This document shows, piece by piece, positions 4,398 to 47,283 of a DNA stretch of 56,856 bases. The position numbers were made by a program, and so were the translations under genes. Every line of letters begins with the position of its first letter. The first letter of the stretch is position 1. Under the pieces are notes generated by a model. That model had not been told where the DNA came from. It saw only the letters and a program-made list of their open reading frames with translations, and ran no database searches. The DNA lies in NCBI GenBank assembly GCA_036383935.1, contig DASVNI010000338.1, forward strand, positions 1-56,856. The letters run 5' to 3'. Origin of the DNA: Gemmatimonadaceae bacterium. Its GTDB lineage: Bacteria; Gemmatimonadota; Gemmatimonadetes; Gemmatimonadales; Gemmatimonadaceae.

Positions 4398-5735
4398 CTA
4401 CAGCAGTCTCGAAAACACCGCCGCGCCCCACTCGATGAACCGGTCGTACCACGGCCGGCGCTGGAACGCCGCGAGCGTGATCTCCTTGGAGCGCGTCAGG
4501 TCGTCCAGGAACACCGAGTCCATCTGTGCGCCGAGCGGCTGGTCGAGGAACACGAAGTTCGACTCGTTGTTGAACGCGAGTGATCGGTTGTCGAAGTTCA
4601 TCGAGCCGATGGACCCCCACATGCCGTCGATGATGAACGTCTTCGCGTGCATCATGGTGGGCTGATACTCGTAGATCTTGATGCCCGCGCGTAGCAGCTC
4701 CTCGTAGCGCGAGCGACCGGCCCACCACGTCGTCTTGACGTCGGTGTTCTTGCTCACCGTCAGGATGCGCACGTCCACGCCGCGTGCCCGTGCCTTCTTG
4801 AGCAGACGCCGGAAGTCGTCGTCAGGGACGAAATACGAGTTCGAGACGTAGAGCGTCTTGCGCGCACTGGCGATCGACAGCGCGATGAACCGTTCCGCTG
4901 GCGTGCTTCCCGTGGTGGGTGAGGAGAAGAAGACTCCGGCCTCCACACCCCCGTCGACCTGCGTGAATGCGTTCTTGGGGAAGAAGATGTCACCCGCGAT
5001 CAGCTCTCCCGTGCATTCCGCCCACGCCGCCGCGAATGCCGCCTGCAGCCCCATCACCGACGGCCCTTCGAACCGGACGCTCGTCTCGCGCCACTGGTCC
5101 TTCTGGCGTCCGTCGCCCAGCCAGTAATCGGCCAGGCCGAATCCGCCCGTATACCCGATCTCGCCGTCCACCACCACGACGCGCACGTGCGAGCGGTCGC
5201 TCGCGTTGTGCAGCGAGTACCAGTGCAGCTGGCGGAGCAGCGCGAGCTCGACGTGCGCCGCGCGCAGGCTGTCCGCCCATTCCTTCTTCAGGTTCTGCGA
5301 GCCGAAGGCATCGAGCACCAGCAGCACTCGCACGCCGGCCCGCGCACGCTCCTGGAGGATGGCCGCGAGCGTGTCGGCCACCGCGCCCGGCCGCGAGTAG
5401 TACATCTGCACCGTGATCGTGCGCTTCGCCGCGCGCAGGTCGCGCCACATCTGCGGATACAAACCATCGCCGTTCAGAGCCAGCTGCGCCGCATTGCCGC
5501 TCGTGAGATGGAGTCCCGTGTACAGCTCGATCGATTCCGTGAAGAGGGAATCGCCGACGGCCGGTGGACCTCCATGATCACCGATCGCCACGACGGCCCT
5601 CACCGGCGTGCCACGCGTGATGGAGAGGATTCCGATCAGGGAGAGCACGACGACGAGCAGGACACCAAGCACCACGCCGACGCGCTTGACTCGCAGCATT
5701 TTTCGCATTTGCCCGCTCCTCTCCACATACTTCAT
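4398..5735 (-). CDS. cls: Cardiolipin synthase / phospholipase D family
   Basis: Two HKD motifs (HVRVVVVDGEIGYTGGFG and MMHAKTFIIDGMWGSIGSMNFDNRS) and an N-terminal TM helix. 445 aa. Confidence 0.88.
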   Translation of the reverse strand: MKYVERSGQMRKMLRVKRVGVVLGVLLVVVLSLIGILSITRGTPVRAVVAIGDHGGPPAVGDSLFTESIELYTGLHLTSGNAAQLALNGDGLYPQMWRDLRAAKRTITVQMYYSRPGAVADTLAAILQERARAGVRVLLVLDAFGSQNLKKEWADSLRAAHVELALLRQLHWYSLHNASDRSHVRVVVVDGEIGYTGGFGLADYWLGDGRQKDQWRETSVRFEGPSVMGLQAAFAAAWAECTGELIAGDIFFPKNAFTQVDGGVEAGVFFSSPTTGSTPAERFIALSIASARKTLYVSNSYFVPDDDFRRLLKKARARGVDVRILTVSKNTDVKTTWWAGRSRYEELLRAGIKIYEYQPTMMHAKTFIIDGMWGSIGSMNFDNRSLAFNNESNFVFLDQPLGAQMDSVFLDDLTRSKEITLAAFQRRPWYDRFIEWGAAVFSRLL

Positions 5736-5806: not shown

Positions 5807-6517
5807 ATGGAATTCTCTGGTCGCAGCGTGGTGCTCACCGGCGTCGGACGCGAAGGTCAGGTCGGTGAGGCCGTCGCGCGGGCGTTCGCCGAACGCGGCG
5901 CGCGCGTGTTCCTCGTCGATCGCCAGGAGAGTGAGGCGCACGCGCGCAGCGACGCGCTCGTCGCCGCTGGGCTACGCTCCGCCGCGCTCGGTGCCGATCT
6001 GACTGACGCGGCGGCGGTGGAAGCGCTCGCCGCGCGCGTGCGCGATGCCACCGGCGGCCGCGTCCATGCGCTCGTTCATCTCGCGGGAGGATTCGCCGCG
6101 AGCGGCCCCGTGGCCGACAGCGACCAGGCGGCGTGGGAGCGCCAGTTCACGATCAACGTCACCACCGCCCACCTCACGGCACGCGCCTTCATCCCGCTGC
6201 TGCGCAGCACGAAGGGCGCGATCGTCTTCTTCGGCTCGGAGGCGGCGCTGCCTGGCGCGCGCGTCGCCGGCATTTCCGCGTACGCGGCGGCAAAGACGGC
6301 CGTCCTCACGCTCGCGCAGGCGATTGCGCAGGAAGAGCGCGACAATGGCGTGCGCGCCAACGCGCTCGCGCCAACGTCGATCCGCACGGCAGCGAACCTC
6401 GCCGAGATGGGCCCGGATGCCGCATACGTCACGCGCGAAGCGGTCGCCGACGTGGTGCTCTGGCTCTGCTCGGACGCGGCGCGCTCGGTCACGGGCCAGA
6501 TCATCCGAGTGCGGTGA
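5807..6517 (+). CDS. Short-chain dehydrogenase/reductase (SDR)
   Basis: N-terminal dinucleotide-binding turn LTGVGREGQVGEAVARAF. YAAAK catalytic Tyr-x3-Lys. 236 aa. Confidence 0.88.
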   Translation: MEFSGRSVVLTGVGREGQVGEAVARAFAERGARVFLVDRQESEAHARSDALVAAGLRSAALGADLTDAAAVEALAARVRDATGGRVHALVHLAGGFAASGPVADSDQAAWERQFTINVTTAHLTARAFIPLLRSTKGAIVFFGSEAALPGARVAGISAYAAAKTAVLTLAQAIAQEERDNGVRANALAPTSIRTAANLAEMGPDAAYVTREAVADVVLWLCSDAARSVTGQIIRVR

Positions 6518-6569
6518 CCAGTCCCCGGGTCGTCTTGCCCCGTGCGACCCGGCGCTCCAGCTTGCCCGC

Positions 6570-7418
6570 ATGACAGTCGTGACGCGCCGCCGGGCAGTAT
6601 CCCGGGCAGTTCGGCTCGACCGGTCGCTCGAGGCGCTCCCGCTCTTCCGCCTCAGTGACTCTGCCGACGACGGCGTGATCACCTACGCAGACGCCGCCGG
6701 CGGCCGCTGGCGTGTCATCCCGAGCCCGGGCGACCGGCTCCCCGGCACCTTCGACCAGGACGTGTACGTCGAGCTGCTGCGCCGCTTCCAGGAGGCGGGC
6801 GAACCGACGGACGGCGTGATCACCTTCACCCTCCACGCCTTCCTGCGCGCCATGGGACGACGCGTCGACGGGCGAACGTACGAGCAGCTGCGCGGCGCGC
6901 TCGGACGGCTCGAGCGAACGACGCTCGAATCGATCGGCATCTACGAGCTGGCGAGCGGCATGCGTGCGGATCTGCGGTTCACTCTGCTCACCTCGGTTGC
7001 GGTCGAGCGGCGACGGACGCTGGATCGCGAGCAGCTTCAGCTCTTCAACAGCATCACCACCGGCGAGCCGGGCGTTGCGCGCGTCGTCCTCGCCGCCGTC
7101 GTCCGCGACAACCTCGCCGCGAACCACGCCATCAGCATTTCGGCCCCCTGCTACTGGGCGCTGGGTTCGCCAGTGGCGCGCCGCCTGTACCGCCTGCTCG
7201 AGGTCGCTCGCGCCGACGGTCGCCTTACCTGGCGCGTCGGTCTGGATCAGCTCGCTCAGCAGCTCCCCCTCGCCCAGCGGTACCCTTCACACCTCCAGCG
7301 CGTGCTCCAGCCGGCCCATGAGATGCTCGTGGCGCAGGGTGTGCTTCGAAACGCCGCCGTCCGGCAACATCAGCGAGACTGGTTCGTCGATTACGTGCTG
7401 GGTTCGAGGCCAGCCTGA
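6570..7418 (+). CDS. Replication initiator protein A (RepA/RPA-family)-like protein
   Basis: I use the ATG at 6570 (aa 176 of ORF 6045..7418), because the upstream 175 codons overlap the SDR gene in another frame. The product shows LPLFRLSD..., DQDVYVELLRRF, TFTLHAFLRAMG and YEQLRGALGRLERTTL. From memory these match the plasmid replication-initiator-A family. Confidence 0.6.
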   Translation: MTVVTRRRAVSRAVRLDRSLEALPLFRLSDSADDGVITYADAAGGRWRVIPSPGDRLPGTFDQDVYVELLRRFQEAGEPTDGVITFTLHAFLRAMGRRVDGRTYEQLRGALGRLERTTLESIGIYELASGMRADLRFTLLTSVAVERRRTLDREQLQLFNSITTGEPGVARVVLAAVVRDNLAANHAISISAPCYWALGSPVARRLYRLLEVARADGRLTWRVGLDQLAQQLPLAQRYPSHLQRVLQPAHEMLVAQGVLRNAAVRQHQRDWFVDYVLGSRPA

Positions 7419-10232: not shown

Positions 10233-11411
10233 TCACCGCGCGTGCGCGGCGGACGCGGCGTTCGTCGCGGGGAGCATCTGCCGTAGGCGCGCCACGCGCT
10301 CGGCCACCGCGCCACTCTCCGCCATGTCCTCCCGGGCGCGCGCGAGCGCCGAGAGCACCGTCGATGAGTCGCGGTCGCCGAACGCCGCGCCGATCTCTCT
10401 GAGCGAGAGATCGAGCAGCTCGTGACAGAGCAGCATCCCGATGCGTCGCGGCTCCACCACGCGGCGCGAGCGTCCTGCGCCCACCAGCTCGTCCGGTGAG
10501 ACACCCCATTCCGCGGCCACGGCGTCCTGCACCGCCTGCGCTGCTCGCAATGGATGCGCCGCGCCGTCGCCGCGCTCCGCGCGCATCGCGACGGCGCGGC
10601 GTGCGAGCACGAGGCTGAGCGCCGATCGTTCGAGTGCGGCGATGGCGAGCAGACGGGTGAGACTTCCTTCCAGCTCGCGCACGCTCCCGTCGCACTGCGA
10701 CGCGAGGTGGTGCGCCACGCTCGGGGGCAGCTCTATGCCCAGCATCGCAGCCTTCGCGTGCAGGATCGCGACGCGGTGCGCCCAGTCGGGAATGCCGAGC
10801 GTCGCGCTGTGGCCCGTCCGGAAGCGGCGCACGATTCGCTGTGCGAGCGCGCTCGCCCCCGCCGCGTCGTCGCTCGTCAGCATGAGCTGGCGCCCCGCGC
10901 TCACAGCGCGCGCCGCGAGCGACAGGAGCGCCTCCTGCGCCGTTGCGTGCCGGTCGAGCACGTGCACGTCGTCGACGACGATCAACGCCGCGCGTGCGAG
11001 CTCGTGCAGCATCAGCTCTGGCGTGCCTCGCCCCAGTGCCGTCGAGAGACGATGGAGAAAATCGTCGGCCGTGAGCAGCTCGGCGACACGCAATGGATCG
11101 CGCAGCGCCGCTTCTGCCGTCACCGCGTGCGCCAGATGGGTCTTTCCCAGCCCCGTGCCGCCGACGAGCAGAATCGGATTGTAGAGCGTACCTGGTGCCA
11201 CGGCCGCAGCCGAGGCGGCAGCATATGCCTCCTCGTTGCTGCGGCCGACGACGAACTGCGGAAAGGTGTACCGGGGGTTGAGGGTCGCGGCCACGTCCCA
11301 CGTTGGAGCAAAAGCCGTGACGTCGAAAGCAAGCTCGGCGGCGAGCACAGCGTCGGGGTGCGCGATGGTGCGTCCTGTGCGGAGAGCCCCCGCATCCCCG
11401 TCTTCTCGCAC
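10233..11411 (-). CDS. dnaA: DnaA-like AAA+ replication initiator lacking domains I/II
   Basis: [13 protein letters not shown], Walker [11 protein letters not shown], Walker [24 protein letters not shown]. The C-terminal DNA-binding domain has [34 protein letters not shown] 11411 is chosen as start (GGGGA 4 nt upstream). The 102 upstream ORF codons are antisense to the neighbouring gene and look non-coding. Confidence 0.75.
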
Positions 11412-11424
11412 CGCATCCCCGCAA

Positions 11425-12870
11425 ATGTCCGACGCAATCGCCTCGCCCGCCGTTCGCGCGCCCGACTTTCCCGACACGCTCGACTGGGTGCACACCGCCG
11501 GCCGTCGGCTTACCCTTGGCGACTTCCGCGGCAAGCTCCTGCTGCTCGATTTCTGGACGTACGGCTGAATCAACTGCATCCATGTGCTTCCGCAGTTGCG
11601 GGAGCTCGAGCAGCGGTTCGGCGACGCGATCGCGGTGGTCGGCGTGCACAGCGGGAAGTACACGGCCGAGCGGATCACCGATCGCATCCGTGACGCGTCC
11701 ATCAGGCTCGACGCCATCCATCCGACTCTGAACGATCGGCAGTTCCGCGTCTGGCGCGCCTACGCCGTGCGCGCGTGGCCGACACTCGTCGCCATCGATC
11801 CGCGTGGCACGGTCGTGGGGATGAGCGCGGGCGAGTTCACCGCCGACGGCGTGACGCCATTCGTCGAGCGTGTGCTCGCCGAGGCGCGTGCCTCAGGCGC
11901 GCTGCGTGAGGAGCCGATGCACCTCGCCCCCGATCCGCCCACGGTCCCCCCGGACCGCCTGGCGTTTCCTGGCAAGGTGGCTGTCCGTGATGATCGCATC
12001 GCCATCGCGGACTCCGGCCACCATCGGCTGCTCGTCGGACGCCTCGAGGAGGACGGGAGTCGGATGCGCGTCGAGCGCGTCATCGGTACCGGTCTACCGG
12101 GCTTCGCCGACGGCGACACACCCGCCTTCCGGTACCCCCAGGGTCTCGCGTTCGGCGGTGACACACTCTACGTCGCCGACACCGGCAACCACGCCATCCG
12201 TGCGGTATCGCTCGCAACCGGCCCCGTACGCACGCTCGCCGGCACCGGCGCGCAGTTGCGCACCGCCCGCGACCGCGCGACCGGCGCAATGAGCTCGCCC
12301 TGGGACATCGCGCTCCACGGCGACATGCTCCACATCGCCATGGCCGGAATCCACCAGCTCTGGACGCTCGATCTGCGCAGCGAGCTCGCCACGCCATTCG
12401 CCGGAACCGGCGCCGAGGAGTTGCACGACGGGTCGCACGACGAGGCGGCGCTCGCCCAACCGATGGGACTGGCCCTCGCCCAGGACGCGCTGCTCGTCGC
12501 AGACGCCGAATCGAGTGCGGTGCGCGAAGTCGATCTGACCACACCTGGCGGGGTGCGCACGATCGTCGGCACTGGCCTGTTCGACTTCGGGCTCGTGGAC
12601 GGCGTTGGCGAGCAGGTGCGGCTTCAGCATCCGCAGGGATTGGCGGTTGCAGAAGACGGTCGCGTGCTCATCTCCGATTCATACAACGACGCCCTCCGCT
12701 GGCTCGACCGCGCGGAGCGTGGAGTCTCGACCTGGGTGCGCGGACTGCACGAGCCCGGGGGAATCGCGATCGGAGCGCGGAGCGTCTACGTCGCCGATAC
12801 GAATGCGCACCGCATCGCGGTGATCGATTTCGACTCGACGGAAGTCCGGCCACTGCGCTTCACCGAGTAG
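11425..12870 (+). CDS. Thioredoxin-fold (redoxin) + NHL-repeat protein with in-frame TGA (candidate selenocysteine) at 11566-11568
   Basis: ORFs 11236..11568 and 11584..12870 are in the same frame. Read-through gives APDFP...[12 protein letters not shown]-[TGA][31 protein letters not shown], with the TGA at the first position of a xINC (CxxC-type) motif. The C-terminal half has repeated NHL-like blades ([47 protein letters not shown]). Confidence 0.7.
11571..11616 (+). other. Candidate SECIS-like hairpins downstream of the TGA
   Basis: A 7-bp stem caactgc (11571-77) / gcagttg (11592-98). Alternatively, an interrupted helix ccgc...ttgc[gggagctcga]gcagcgg spans 11590-11616 and has a G-starting apical loop. 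Neither has been checked against a SECIS model. Confidence 0.3.
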
Positions 12871-21070: not shown

Positions 21071-21418
21071 TCAGTCGGCGCGAGGTCGCGTCGCCTGGAG
21101 CCGGAGAAGGCTCCGCGCCAACGCGGCATTGTCCTGCGCCAGTCGGAACAGCTCCGACATCAGCTCGTCCCGGTCGTCGCCCGCGAGCTCCGCGATCACC
21201 GGAGCGCGATGCCCATATCGCCGTCCCGGATCCACCCGCCGCTCCATCACGACCCGGCCCCGGTGCGGTCGCTTGCCTGGCTCGTCGTCGGCCGATGCGC
21301 GCACCGCGTCCAGCTCGACTTCGACGTAACCGCCGCCTGGCATGGGGCGCCGGTACAGCGAGTTGCCCGACTGACCCTCATGCGTGCCGTGCGCGGCGTC
21401 TTGATGCTGGTCCAGCAT
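21071..21418 (-). CDS. Hypothetical protein (115 aa) downstream of the LigD polymerase gene
   Basis: Internal ATG (aa 43 of ORF 21071..21544), on the same strand as and just after the polymerase gene. No motif recognised, and the start is uncertain. Confidence 0.4.
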   Translation of the reverse strand: MLDQHQDAAHGTHEGQSGNSLYRRPMPGGGYVEVELDAVRASADDEPGKRPHRGRVVMERRVDPGRRYGHRAPVIAELAGDDRDELMSELFRLAQDNAALARSLLRLQATRPRAD

Positions 21419-22466
21419 GTGCTCCTCCAACTCGACTGCGTCTCGTACGTTCGCGTCGCGGCGAGGGCGCCGCGGACACGTCCTGCAACGTCGCCAACGC
21501 GCGTGCGAGCACTCGTGCGCTCGGTCGCGTGGCGATCGCATCACCCCACAGATCTCCGGTGCGCGCCAGGCGCGCCGGCATGCTCTTCACCGTGAACGTC
21601 TCGATCCGCAGTCGACTGGTCAGCTCGCGCTCACGCAGCGGCGCCGACACCGTCGCGGCAGGCTTCGCCCGCACGCTGTACGGAGCCGCCATGCTCTTTC
21701 CGCGCGCATTCTGCAGCGCGTCGACGTAGATGCTCCCCTTCGGGCGCGCCTTGATCCCGCGCTCCAGCGTCGCACGTTCGGGAGCGGCCGCCACGACCGC
21801 TTCGGCGAGTCGAAGCGCCAGAGCGGCAGAGGTCTCGTAGCTCGTCCGAGGTGGAAGCGGGAGCACGATGTGAATTCCACTCGCCCCCGACGTCTTGAGC
21901 GCGACAGTGAGCCCGCATCCCTCCGCGATGCGCGTCACCTCGCGCGCCAGCGCGGCGACGTGCGAGAAGGGCACGTCGTCCCCTGGATCGAGATCGATCA
22001 GGCACCGGTCTGGAGCCTCGACATCAGTCACGCGCGAGAGCCAGGGATGCACCTCGATCGCGCCGAGCTGCACGGTGTAGAGCAGCGTCGGAAGGTCGCC
22101 GCCGATGATGCGCGGCTTCTCGCCGAGATCGGCGGTGTCCAACGCCTCGACGCGCACGACATCCGGCACGTGCTCCCCAGCGCTCTGCTGGAAGAACATC
22201 GGCCCCTCCACGCCGTCCGGATGCCGTTGCAGCACGAGCGCGCGCCCCTCGATCTCCGGCAGCAGCATCGGGGCGACCCGCGTGTAGTAGCGCATCAGGC
22301 CGCCCTTCGTGACGCCCACCTTCGGGAAGAACATCTTCCCCAGGCTCGTCACGCGAAGCGTCTCGCCGCGACTGAACGACAGCTCGCCTTCGCCCCCCTC
22401 ACGCTCGATCGCGCGCAGTTGCGCCTCGACGTCCGCAAAGTCGACGGAGCGACTACGCGGCGTCAT
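21378..22466 (-). CDS. ligD: LigD-type primase-polymerase (NHEJ polymerase domain protein)
   Basis: FPKVGVTKGGLMRYY, LVLQRHPDG, HPWLSRV, DLDPGDDVPF and KTSGASGIHIVLPL. These are the AEP primase-polymerase motifs of LigD-Pol. The start overlaps the ligase stop. Confidence 0.85.
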   Translation of the reverse strand: MTPRSRSVDFADVEAQLRAIEREGGEGELSFSRGETLRVTSLGKMFFPKVGVTKGGLMRYYTRVAPMLLPEIEGRALVLQRHPDGVEGPMFFQQSAGEHVPDVVRVEALDTADLGEKPRIIGGDLPTLLYTVQLGAIEVHPWLSRVTDVEAPDRCLIDLDPGDDVPFSHVAALAREVTRIAEGCGLTVALKTSGASGIHIVLPLPPRTSYETSAALALRLAEAVVAAAPERATLERGIKARPKGSIYVDALQNARGKSMAAPYSVRAKPAATVSAPLRERELTSRLRIETFTVKSMPARLARTGDLWGDAIATRPSARVLARALATLQDVSAAPSPRRERTRRSRVGGAHAGPASRRRARHA

Positions 22467-23508
22467 TCGCGATCTCGCCGGTGCCCCAGCGCTGCATGCT
22501 GACACTCTCGATCGTCACGTCGCGCGCCGACTTGTCATCACGCACGCCGAGGAAGATCGGCTGGCGCAGCCGGCCGTCGGCCGTCCACTCGGCGAACTTC
22601 ACCTCGACGACGACCCGCGGCGCGACCCAGTGCGCAGGCTCGTTGGTTCGCGGCGTCTCCGAGAACGGCGAGGTGCGCCGTTCGATCTTCTCGAGGCGTG
22701 CGCGCATCGCGCGTAATCCCTCGCGATCGAATCCCCCGCCCATGTGCCCCACGTACCGGAGTCGATCCGCCGCGTCGTATGCTCCCAGCAGCAGCGCGCC
22801 GAGAAAGGGCCGCGTCTTCCGCGGCTCGGTGAATCCCCCCACCACGAACTCGGCCCGGAACTGCAGCTTCAATTTCAACCAAGCATCGGAGCGCGCACCG
22901 ACCTGGTAACGTGCGTCCGAGCGCTTGGCGATGATCCCTTCCCATCCAGCGCGCCGCGCCCGGGCCAGCATCGTGGCGCCGCGCACACTCGTCTCGCCGA
23001 GGATGAGGGCCGTATCGCCATCGCTCGCAGCGGCAAAGAGCGCCTCGAGGCGCTCGCGCCGCTCGTGCCACGGCCGATTCATCAGCGAGGCGCGTCCCTC
23101 GCGCAGGAGATCGAACGCCACCAGCGTGGCCGGCGCCTCGACGGCCAGTCGCGTGATCTCTTCGGCGTTCTTCAGATGCATGCGAGCCTGCAACGGCTGA
23201 AATCCGGTCGTCGTCACCGCGTTACTCGTTGCTCTGCGCCGGCGTCGGCGCGCAACGACCTCTCCGTCCAGAACGACTGACGATCCTGCCCGCGAGGCGA
23301 GGGAACGCAGAGCGCCCACCACCTCCGGAAATTGCGCGTGCTTGTCCTTGCCATTCCGGGTCATCAGTCGCACCTGGCGCGACGATGCCTCTGCGATGAC
23401 GCGCATGCCGTCGTACTTGGGCTCGTACGTCCACCCCGCTCCTCTGGGCAGAGCATGACCCAGCGTGGCGTACATCGGCTCGGTGAGCGCCGCGCGCATC
23501 TTCGACAC
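22453..23508 (-). CDS. ligD: ATP-dependent DNA ligase (LigD ligase domain type)
   Basis: Motif I EPKYDGMR, motif III LDGEVV, FDLL, motif V EGIIAKR, then WLKLK. 351 aa. Confidence 0.88.
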   Translation of the reverse strand: MSKMRAALTEPMYATLGHALPRGAGWTYEPKYDGMRVIAEASSRQVRLMTRNGKDKHAQFPEVVGALRSLASRAGSSVVLDGEVVARRRRRRATSNAVTTTGFQPLQARMHLKNAEEITRLAVEAPATLVAFDLLREGRASLMNRPWHERRERLEALFAAASDGDTALILGETSVRGATMLARARRAGWEGIIAKRSDARYQVGARSDAWLKLKLQFRAEFVVGGFTEPRKTRPFLGALLLGAYDAADRLRYVGHMGGGFDREGLRAMRARLEKIERRTSPFSETPRTNEPAHWVAPRVVVEVKFAEWTADGRLRQPIFLGVRDDKSARDVTIESVSMQRWGTGEIANDAA

Positions 23509-23665
23509 GAGGCCATGAGCGGCAAGAGAAGTGCCCGGTCCCGGCCCGGTCGGGCGCCTTGCGCAGCCCTCTGCTCAGCTCGGCGCTCACGCACGAACGC
23601 CCGGGACATTGTCCCGGGCGTCGGCGGAGTTCGAGACGATTCAAGCCCGTCGAGCGGGCATCGAA

Positions 23666-23875
23666 TCAGCCTGTCTTGGTCACATCGGCCGCTTGCGGCC
23701 CCTTCTGACCCTGGACGATCTCGAACTCGACTTTGTCCCCTTCCGCCAGCGACTTGAACCCATTCCCCTGAATGGCGCTGAAGTGCACGAAAACGTCAGG
23801 ACCTCCTTCACGCGAGATGAAACCGAAACCCTTCGCGTCATTGAACCACTTCACCGTGCCGTTGATGCGAGCCAT
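23666..23875 (-). CDS. Cold-shock protein (CSD)
   Basis: [36 protein letters not shown]... with RNP1/RNP2 motifs. Internal ATG of ORF 23666..24061. Confidence 0.93.
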
Positions 23876-24082
23876 GTACCGTACCTCGTACCGAGCTATG
23901 GAGCCTGATCGCGCGCGCGAGGGGATGGGCCGGTCGCCGGCCGCCGCTCGTCCCACGTGATCCCTGTGATGCCCCGTCGCGCCAATGGTCGGCTCTCGGG
24001 GCGGGACGTTATCCGAGTAAGCGGGCAAGTTTTGTGCACACGTGGACTTGCCGCCGCGCACGACAGGTGTCAGAACGCGAAA

Positions 24083-24104
24083 ACGGGGCCGAAGTCGGCC
24101 CCGT
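24083..24104 (-). terminator. Rho-independent terminator of the zinc-ribbon gene
   Basis: acggggccg / cggccccgt stem with a 4-nt loop. On the minus strand it is followed by TTTCGC. Confidence 0.6.
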
Positions 24105-24153
24105 CTCGCGGTTAGACACTACTGTGATGACCTGCCTCGAAGGTTCTGTCCGT

Positions 24154-46769: not shown

Positions 46770-46782
46770 AGGGAAAAGAGAA

Positions 46783-46810
46783 AGCGGGGCGACCCAGAGG
46801 GTCGCCCCGC
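46783..46810 (-). terminator. Rho-independent terminator of the second csp gene
   Basis: agcggggcgacc / ggtcgccccgct (12 bp, 4-nt loop). On the minus strand it is followed by TTCTCTTTTCCC. Confidence 0.75.
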
Positions 46811-46836
46811 TCTCATGCACTTCGAGCTCGATCAGC

Positions 46837-47043
46837 TCAGGTCTTCGACACGTTCTCGGCCGCGGGGCCCTTGGCGCCCTGGACGATGTCGAATTCCACC
46901 GAGTCGCCCTCGGCGAGGGACTTGAAGCCGTTGCCCTGGATCGCGCTGTAGTGCACGAAGCAGTCTTTCTCGCCGCTGTCGGGGGTAATGAAGCCGAAAC
47001 CCTTCGCGTCGTTGAACCACTTCACCTTGCCGGTCGTACGCAT
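46837..47043 (-). CDS. Cold-shock protein (CSD), second copy
   Basis: [65 protein letters not shown]. Confidence 0.93.
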
Positions 47044-47283
47044 ATCCCAACTCCTGAGAAAACTGATTGTCTAGGGAGCGGAACGCGCCGTACCCCGACA
47101 ATAGCCAGTGCGGCGGGCGCACCGGTGTCCCGTCGCGATGAACGACAAACGCCGAGCCCGATGCTGCTGGCTCGGCGAGCGCAAACGTAGCAAGCCCAAA
47201 AAGAACGGTCAATAGTCGGGCAGGGGCCCATCCGCCCCGAGCGGATGGATTGGGTGCGATGTGTCGGGCGGTCAGCGATGCTG

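Follow-up and report, generated by a model that had tools for sequence, protein, structure and literature searches.

We describe a gene of 481 codons with a single in-frame TGA in a 56,856-nucleotide stretch of DNA from a Gemmatimonadaceae bacterium (contig DASVNI010000338.1 of assembly GCA_036383935.1; this whole stretch is called the window below), which very probably encodes a true selenoprotein related to human NHLRC2 and plant SOQ1. Its predicted product joins a thioredoxin (Trx)-like domain to an NHL-repeat beta-propeller, and the TGA falls on the first residue of the redox motif, where selenocysteine (Sec) would take the place of cysteine. The phenomenon is the textbook signature of a bacterial selenoprotein, i.e. 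a Sec/Cys swap at the first CxxC position of a Trx fold, accompanied by an intragenic Sec insertion sequence (SECIS). In the window, which has a G+C content of 67.5%, the gene appears as two open reading frames (ORFs), 11236..11568 and 11584..12870, that lie in the same frame and are parted by the TGA at 11566-68 plus five sense codons (ATC AAC TGC ATC CAT). Read from the ATG at 11425, in agreement with the start of a full-length Cys homologue (P0109), the joined frame has codon 48 (TGA) as its sole internal stop and ends with the TAG at 12868-70. The active site then reads DFWTYG-U-INC-H, and Cys51 in this motif is the sole Cys of the protein. An earlier note on this DNA had given the split ORFs, their shared frame, the intervening codons, the peptide around the TGA and a joined product of 481 amino acids, and all of these were borne out, coordinates included, upon translation.

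Conservation of the TGA and its place in the active site

The codon was read directly in the DNA of 80 species-representative genomes. It is TGA in 24/24 Gemmatimonadaceae-type loci that hold the site (L001-L019, L021-L025; 51-86% amino acid identity to the window protein), which are labelled Gemmatimonadetes, Gemmatimonadaceae or Gemmatimonas, plus two unclassified, while locus L020 is truncated by a contig end. The other 55 homologues, which come from Longimicrobiaceae, Chloroflexota, Acidobacteriota/Pyrinomonadaceae, Acidimicrobiia, Gammaproteobacteria and Trueperaceae, all carry TGC or TGT here. Scanning metagenome contigs for the pattern TTYTGGACNTAYGGNTGAATHAAYTG gave at least 120 stretches with the TGA form. 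In the alignment with the SOQ1 structure 7DJJ, the query segment ldfwtyg[U]incihvlp falls on LDFWTYCCINCMHVLP of SOQ1, so that Sec48 corresponds to the second C of CCINC and Cys51 to the last. The earlier note had proposed that the TGA stands in for the attacking Cys, the N-terminal one of the CxxC motif. This is upheld by the alignment with the CCINC of SOQ1 and NHLRC2, and by the 55 homologues outside the clade, where the aligned residue is the Cys that a selenoprotein reading needs; these homologues read FWTYGCINCxH, in keeping with the active site FWTxxC-x-N-C-x-H that the note gave for the Cys-containing members of the family. Within the alternation of Sec and Cys forms, the Cys form P0109 (476 amino acids, locus L203) is 66% identical to the window protein, which lies inside the similarity range of the Sec forms.

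A single-base change from TGC to TGA would suffice to make the gene a pseudogene, or to place a sequencing or assembly error where the organism has TGC or TGT. Against such an origin, 24 independent species-level genomes share the identical codon, as do at least 120 metagenome contigs drawn from many different samples; the orthologues carry no further frame disruptions (a check that the earlier note had proposed), and on either side of the TGA the ratio of non-synonymous to synonymous substitution rates (dN/dS) is clearly less than 1. Compared with the window at dS 0.5-2.7, dN/dS is 0.05-0.44 over the 38 codons upstream of the TGA and 0.14-0.54 over a downstream stretch of 100 codons, i.e. the upstream part is at least equally constrained. 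Values of 0.05-0.44 over 38 codons indicate that the upstream piece is translated in the same frame, and a dS of 0.5-2.7 among TGA orthologues indicates that the TGA has outlived saturating synonymous divergence. A genome-wide reassignment of TGA was also considered and ruled out, since TGA is the stop codon of 36 of the 48 putative window genes. Because the TGA is conserved, its flanks are constrained and TGA serves as an ordinary stop, we exclude all three of these explanations; the comparative sequence data effectively refute a pseudogene or a sequencing error, to which we would give next to no chance, and the view of the earlier note that an old pseudogene was unlikely is thereby strengthened, with the TGA kept in 24 species genomes under purifying selection on both sides.

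Two irregular loci were seen among the relatives. One TGA-containing relative (L193:1982-2035) has a TAG 17 codons past the TGA and looks damaged, and another (L145, around 4920-5100) has a normal N-terminus and U-INC, followed by unrelated sequence; the two may be pseudogenes or assembly chimeras.

The public databases hold this gene in pieces. A search of 5.8 billion proteins found about 120 close relatives at 72-89% identity, nearly all of them 424-429 amino acids long with 86-89% query coverage, and all of these calls are cut at one place just past the TGA, as is the window's own call (P0001, 424 amino acids). The gene calls of the orthologues open with VLPQLRELE or MLPQLRELE, and the N-terminal fragments, of 56-110 amino acids, exist as separate small 'hypothetical protein' entries; P0109 is the single full-length match, and the database matches include no full-length relative annotated with Sec. 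Every gene caller thus treats the UGA as a true stop, which would leave a 47-residue peptide and a separate protein of 428 residues made from the GTG at 11584 or from a later start, and the agreement of about 120 C-terminal calls (424-429 amino acids) with dozens of N-terminal fragments, together with the usability of that GTG as a start codon, speaks for it. Such a stop would, however, break up the Trx fold between its first strand and the helix that bears CxxC, and deprive the larger piece of one redox residue. The two pieces are moreover always in frame with exactly five codons between them, and those codons spell I-N-C-x-H, the conserved active site; full-length single-chain Cys homologues are the rule elsewhere, and a Shine-Dalgarno-like requirement does not explain the conserved hairpin described below. 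We therefore regard a genuine stop at this codon as very improbable.

A conserved SECIS-type hairpin past the TGA

The earlier note had expected a SECIS-type hairpin to follow the TGA, and a conserved one does, at 11586-11605 (Table 1). It has an 8-bp, G/C-rich stem that begins 17 nt past the TGA and occupies the same columns in every TGA-containing sequence. Folded by itself, it reaches -14.5 kcal/mol (z = -4.36, with 0/200 shuffles equally stable), whereas the fold of the whole 75-nt segment is not significant (z = -1.08), so that the local hairpin alone stands out. In an alignment of 127 distinct 54-nt sequences that run from the TGA onward (alignment A1), the 7-pair core of the stem takes up columns 22-28 with 33-39. 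Standard pairs fill 86.7% of the cells of this core, against 37-61% in controls with the 3' arm shifted by 1-3 columns; its covariation score is 0.192, compared with 0.102 ± 0.007 for shuffled data (0/500 reaching it), and changes on both sides of a pair are seen in 43 cells, compared with 13.5 after shuffling. The compensatory stem variants include AUCCCGC/GCGGGAU, CUUCCGC/GCGGAAG, CUGCCG/CGGCAG, UUCCCU/AGGGAA and GCCUU/AAGGC. The loop consensus is A/G-G-U/G-U, with an invariant last U and a G at position 2 in 126/134 sequences, and GU is present in every loop variant compared (AGUU, GGGU, GUGU, CGGU, AGGU, GUCU, UAGU, CCGU). The codons beneath the hairpin (CTY CCG CAG TTG CGG GAG) have almost frozen third positions, including TTG for Leu.

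The published bacterial SECIS model asks for an apical loop of 3-9 nt, an upper stem of 4-16 bp, a minimum free energy of at most -7.5 kcal/mol, a G in one of the first two loop positions, as a rule with G/U after it, and a distance of 16-37 nt between the UGA and the loop (PMC13188914). The window hairpin lies within all of these bounds, with a 4-nt loop, 8 bp, G2 followed by U, a 25-nt spacing and the folding energy given above. A covariance model built from the hairpin (R1) found the window element as its best match in the window (35.5 bits, E = 2.4e-8) and nothing else credible in the window and 26 related loci, two weak locus matches being ordinary gene ends. The second-best match in the window, at 11196-11225 on the minus strand (19.1 bits, E about 0.0025), lies over an Ala-rich stretch in a DnaA-like ORF and was rejected as a SECIS, being a chance hairpin with no TGA nearby.

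The hairpin is particular to the Sec form of the gene. Over the same columns, the Sec forms have on average 6.06/7 pairs and a local minimum free energy of -12.6 kcal/mol, against 2.85/7 pairs and -3.7 kcal/mol for the 55 Cys forms. The TGC-containing Trx-NHL gene for P0109 (L203:1222-2652) keeps the stem, CTCCCGC/GCGGGAG, and has the loop AGCT in place of AGTT; this AGCU loop amounts to CTG where Sec forms have TTG. From its sequence, it looks like a recent Sec-to-Cys replacement in which the constraint on the loop has been relaxed. As in the window, an aldo/keto reductase gene lies downstream of this Cys gene and is read from the other strand.

Trx-NHL genes make up 60 of the 145 TGA loci retrieved; they read INC[IML]H[VI]LPQLRELE and continue for 403-503 codons past the TGA. 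A second group, of about 70 of the 145 loci, encodes small proteins of roughly 175-190 amino acids with signal-peptide-like N-termini, which share FWTYG-U-INC and the same hairpin, read INC[RKQ]N[VI]IPQLRxWH or INCERTLPWVKAWH, and supply most of the stem covariation. These small redoxins were found within L083-L202 (e.g. L089:6927-6980, L091:1476-1529), are at least as common as the Trx-NHL type and are split likewise by gene callers.

Two other helices had been put forward in the earlier note as possible SelB-binding sites, and neither turned out to be the conserved element. The first pairs 11571-77 with 11592-98; the exact 7-nt complement does exist in the window, and the two segments are 92.6% complementary over the 127 sequences, but no change affects both sides and there is no excess over shuffles. 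The I-N-C codons hold its 5' side constant, so that this helix cannot covary, and lineages with GGGU or GUGU loops have lost the pairing, although they keep the hairpin at 11586-11605. Its 3' side spans the end of the 5' arm, the AGUU loop and the first base of the 3' arm, so that the two structures exclude each other. The complementarity may be a coincidence or, as a weaker possibility, a masking helix that would hide the SelB site until the ribosome unwinds it. The second, an interrupted helix at 11590-11616, was rejected, with only 56% of its positions paired.

A stable hairpin past a stop codon can promote read-through generally, as is well established, and the UGA could in principle be read through without Sec, with the hairpin aiding near-cognate decoding as Trp, Cys, Arg or Gly, or slowing termination; the failure to find Sec genes in the window or its flanks would fit this. 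The UGA nevertheless sits exactly on the catalytic Cys of CxxC, where Cys is the sole alternative residue in 55 homologues, and Trp, Arg or Gly would wreck the redox centre. If Cys were inserted, TGC would be simpler and one mutation away, yet the TGA persists through saturated synonymous divergence. Beyond this, the loop G-U of the SECIS model is kept in every variant compared, at a spacing in the SECIS range. We consider read-through without Sec to be highly unlikely and retain the selenoprotein reading, for which the comparative sequence data show both a putative recoding signal and the active-site position of the recoded residue.

Table 1. Features of the probable selenoprotein gene, in window coordinates
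Feature	Position	Strand	Basis and details
Complete gene, very probably a selenoprotein gene	11425..12870	+	481 codons + TAG, single in-frame TGA at codon 48; translation
N-terminal 47 codons, start of the Trx-like domain to the active-site turn	11425..11565	+	Peptide kept in 24/24 genome orthologues
Trx-like (Trx8/TlpA/DipZ-type) domain, residues about 11-140	11455..11844	+	Pfam Thioredoxin_8 3.2e-11, AhpC-TSA 1e-8
UGA, predicted Sec48, first residue of the U-I-N-C redox motif	11566..11568	+	Codon comparison, SOQ1 7DJJ alignment
Alternative pairing, CAACUGC (11571-77, Asn-Cys codons) with GCAGUUG (11592-98)	11571..11598	+	Exact complement
TGC, Cys51, predicted resolving Cys of UxxC	11575..11577	+	Cys count; column invariant in alignment A1
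GTG, false start for gene callers, read here as Val54 inside the gene	11584..11586	+	ORF list
SECIS-type hairpin	11586..11605	+	5' arm 11586-11593 (GCUUCCGC), loop 11594-11597 AGUU, 3' arm 11598-11605 (GCGGGAGC); encodes V-LPQLRE-L
NHL-repeat beta-propeller, residues about 179-474	11959..12846	+	Pfam NHL 1.4e-28

Relatives, proposed mechanism and points against Sec

Domain searches with Pfam, run on the product with Cys in place of the TGA, gave the matches in Table 1. The closest solved structure is the lumenal Trx-like/NHL region of Arabidopsis SOQ1 (7DJJ, E=1.8e-92, query 8-435), followed by human NHLRC2 (6GC1, E=1.7e-84, query 11-474 on 6GC1 residues 60-573). DipZ (2HYX), TlpA and ResA match the Trx-like domain, with the Trx domain of M. 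tuberculosis DipZ at E=1.4e-22 (query 11-170), and the cis-Pro motif AWPT is present (Pro119, 11779-81). The propeller aligns with the NHL-only constructs 6G7W (query 179-474) and 7DJM (query 178-436).

NHLRC2 and SOQ1 are collinear with the window protein, with a Trx8-like domain directly followed by an NHL propeller, which has six blades in these two relatives, and share its active-site context, LDFWTY-x-C/U-INC-x-HVLP. They differ from it in carrying the motif CC(I/V)NC (Biterova et al. 2018, PMC6107167), where the window protein has G-U-I-N-C and the bacterial Cys homologues have G-C-I-N-C; the window protein hence keeps the xINC half and the redox pair, with Sec for the first Cys and Gly before the Sec. 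It also lacks a HAD domain, a membrane anchor and the C-terminal beta-stranded domain with its Cys pair, and ends at residue 481, just past the propeller. Most bacterial homologues likewise have no C-terminal beta-stranded domain (PMC6107167). C431 and C434 form the redox pair of SOQ1, whose recombinant Trx-NHL-CTD (with CTD for the C-terminal domain) has recently been reported with methionine sulfoxide reductase activity (bioRxiv 10.1101/2024.11.01.621559); the counterparts of C431/C434 in the window protein are Sec48/Cys51, and since the C-terminal domain is missing, the Trx-to-CTD disulfide relay proposed for SOQ1 cannot apply as such. The CCINC of NHLRC2 is at the N-terminal end of helix alpha1 and faces the propeller 'cup', and an insulin assay found no activity (PMC6107167). 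The C-terminal Trx-like domain of DipZ (2HYX/5CYY, SCINC) belongs to the same Trx subfamily and has the same x-C-I-N-C signature, but it belongs, as the periplasmic domain, to a membrane reductant transporter, uses Cys rather than Sec and has no propeller. The window protein is probably cytoplasmic, as judged by inspection from its lack of a hydrophobic N-terminus.

Generic UxxC Trx-fold entries are already present in Table 1 of a 2026 catalogue of 119 prokaryotic selenoprotein families, among them a Prx-like thiol:disulfide oxidoreductase (PF00578), a thiol-disulfide isomerase-like family (cd02966) and a Redoxin family (PF08534) (PMC13188914); a fusion to NHL repeats or a propeller is not listed there. 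Like the window protein, the catalogued Prx-like and Redoxin selenoproteins have UxxC at the CxxC site of a TlpA/ResA/AhpC-TSA-type Trx fold and abundant Cys homologues; they are listed by a single Trx-fold domain identifier, whereas the window protein adds an NHL propeller of 300 residues. On the window protein, PF00578 scores 35.6 bits (cut-off 26) and PF08534 scores 24.3 bits (cut-off 26.6), and its Trx domain could already have been binned in one of the generic catalogue families. Neither 'NHL' nor 'propeller' occurs in the PMC13188914 review, 'NHL' does not occur in the BSepDB, deep-Sep, GOS and Peng et al. papers, and the UINC motif is absent from the GOS and Peng supplements searched. 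No NCBIfam model reaches its cut-off for the window protein or for the small redoxins that share its motif, and a literature search found no paper tying NHL, NHLRC2 or SOQ1 to selenocysteine.

With these relatives as a guide, a mechanism can be proposed. The hairpin at 11586-11605 would recruit SelB·GTP·Sec-tRNA(Sec) at UGA48, and this complex would outcompete RF2. The product would then carry its U48-I-N-C51 centre at the N-terminal end of helix alpha1, turned towards the propeller. The Sec48 selenolate would attack the substrate and Cys51 would resolve the intermediate to a selenenylsulfide, with the propeller supplying substrate binding. By analogy with the methionine sulfoxide reductase activity of SOQ1, the substrate may be oxidised Met or Cys residues of proteins. 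For the recoding step, the closest parallel is E. coli fdhF, which, like the window gene, has an in-frame UGA followed by an intragenic G/C-rich stem with a 4-nt loop and G-U at loop positions 2-3. In fdhF the UGA is at codon 140 and the tetraloop GGUC at nt 22-25, and the AGUU loop of the window lies at nt 29-32, 7 nt farther. The window hairpin is not an fdhF-type element itself, and by analogy it would work as the fdhF element does.

Several observations weigh against Sec insertion. The bulged U of the fdhF type (U17) is absent from the window hairpin, which is a perfect 8-bp helix. Rfam has no match for it: no SECIS or tRNA-Sec family was found at gathering thresholds over the whole window or in a permissive search of 11400-11800, where ALIL alone appeared, below threshold. 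RNAalifold on the 54-nt alignment chose a competing CUGC/GCAG helix, with just -1.6 kcal/mol and no compensatory change, and the stem core and loop are near-invariant, so that the covariation comes mainly from 4/7 pairs. A literature search found no account of Sec use in Gemmatimonadetes, Gemmatimonadota or Gemmatimonas. Genes for selA, selB, selD and tRNA-Sec are absent from the window and its flanks: ARAGORN detected neither tRNA-Sec nor any other tRNA in the window and 25 Gemmatimonadetes loci, a tblastn search of the window plus 200 loci (about 1.9 Mb) with SelA, SelB and SelD of E. coli found no homologue, and no Pfam domains of the Sec machinery occur in the 48 putative window genes. We take this absence to be uninformative rather than negative, because such genes need not be linked to selenoprotein genes. 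Selenium incorporation at the UGA is, finally, something that we infer from sequence comparison, as we do the presence of SelB and tRNA-Sec in the source genome.

The rest of the window and what the gene would mean

No other coding-like in-frame TGA with a redox motif turned up when the window was scanned, and two extra matches to a regular expression for the core motif were rejected as selenoprotein candidates for want of a UGA context. The diverging neighbour of the gene, at 10233-11400 on the minus strand, encodes a DnaA-like protein (Bac_DnaA ATPase and DnaA C-terminal helix-turn-helix); its stop-to-stop frame reaches 11759, and its real start must precede the selenoprotein gene. The gene at 6003-7415 (+), 4 kb away, encodes a protein with a 'Replication initiator protein A' domain, and Arg and His biosynthesis genes farther along the window suggest a chromosome. 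The sole Rfam match at gathering score is a cspA thermoregulator at 46781-47122 (-), with 78.8 bits against a threshold of 78; it overlies a cold-shock-domain gene at 46840-47070 (-), so that similarity of coding sequence may explain much of it, and a second cold-shock-domain gene lies at 23669-24118 (-). At 21381-23574 (-), genes for a LigD primase-polymerase and an ATP-dependent DNA ligase lie side by side and together make up a module for non-homologous end joining.

It is accepted that Sec/Cys pairs mark catalytic redox cysteines, and mutations in NHLRC2 cause FINCA disease. The pair described here points to the first Cys of xINC in the NHLRC2/SOQ1 family as such a residue. Because Sec would occupy this position family-wide, in a protein that has just one further redox residue, Cys51, and lacks the C-terminal relay domain, it can tentatively be proposed that the Trx-NHL core is a self-contained redox enzyme and not a scaffold or relay, the first Cys of xINC being a nucleophile in direct attack on the substrate that the propeller holds; we take this to be possible and on balance doubtful. 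If it is true, candidate activities would be those of a protein Met-sulfoxide or sulfenic-acid reductase, or of a peroxidase. The naturally hyper-reactive bacterial orthologue with its single Cys would be a convenient enzyme for substrate trapping.

For the bacteria themselves, the finding means that one gene has been split in the databases across Gemmatimonadaceae and at least 60 soil and sediment metagenome contigs into a 'hypothetical protein' and a piece called 'NHL repeat / YncE / alkyl hydroperoxide reductase', the larger annotated piece being left without its active site. One rule, FWTYG-TGA-ATH-AAY-TGY followed by the hairpin, would mend all of the split Trx-NHL genes together with the small secreted redoxins, and the gene itself would imply the use of Sec in a family of mostly aerobic soil bacteria.

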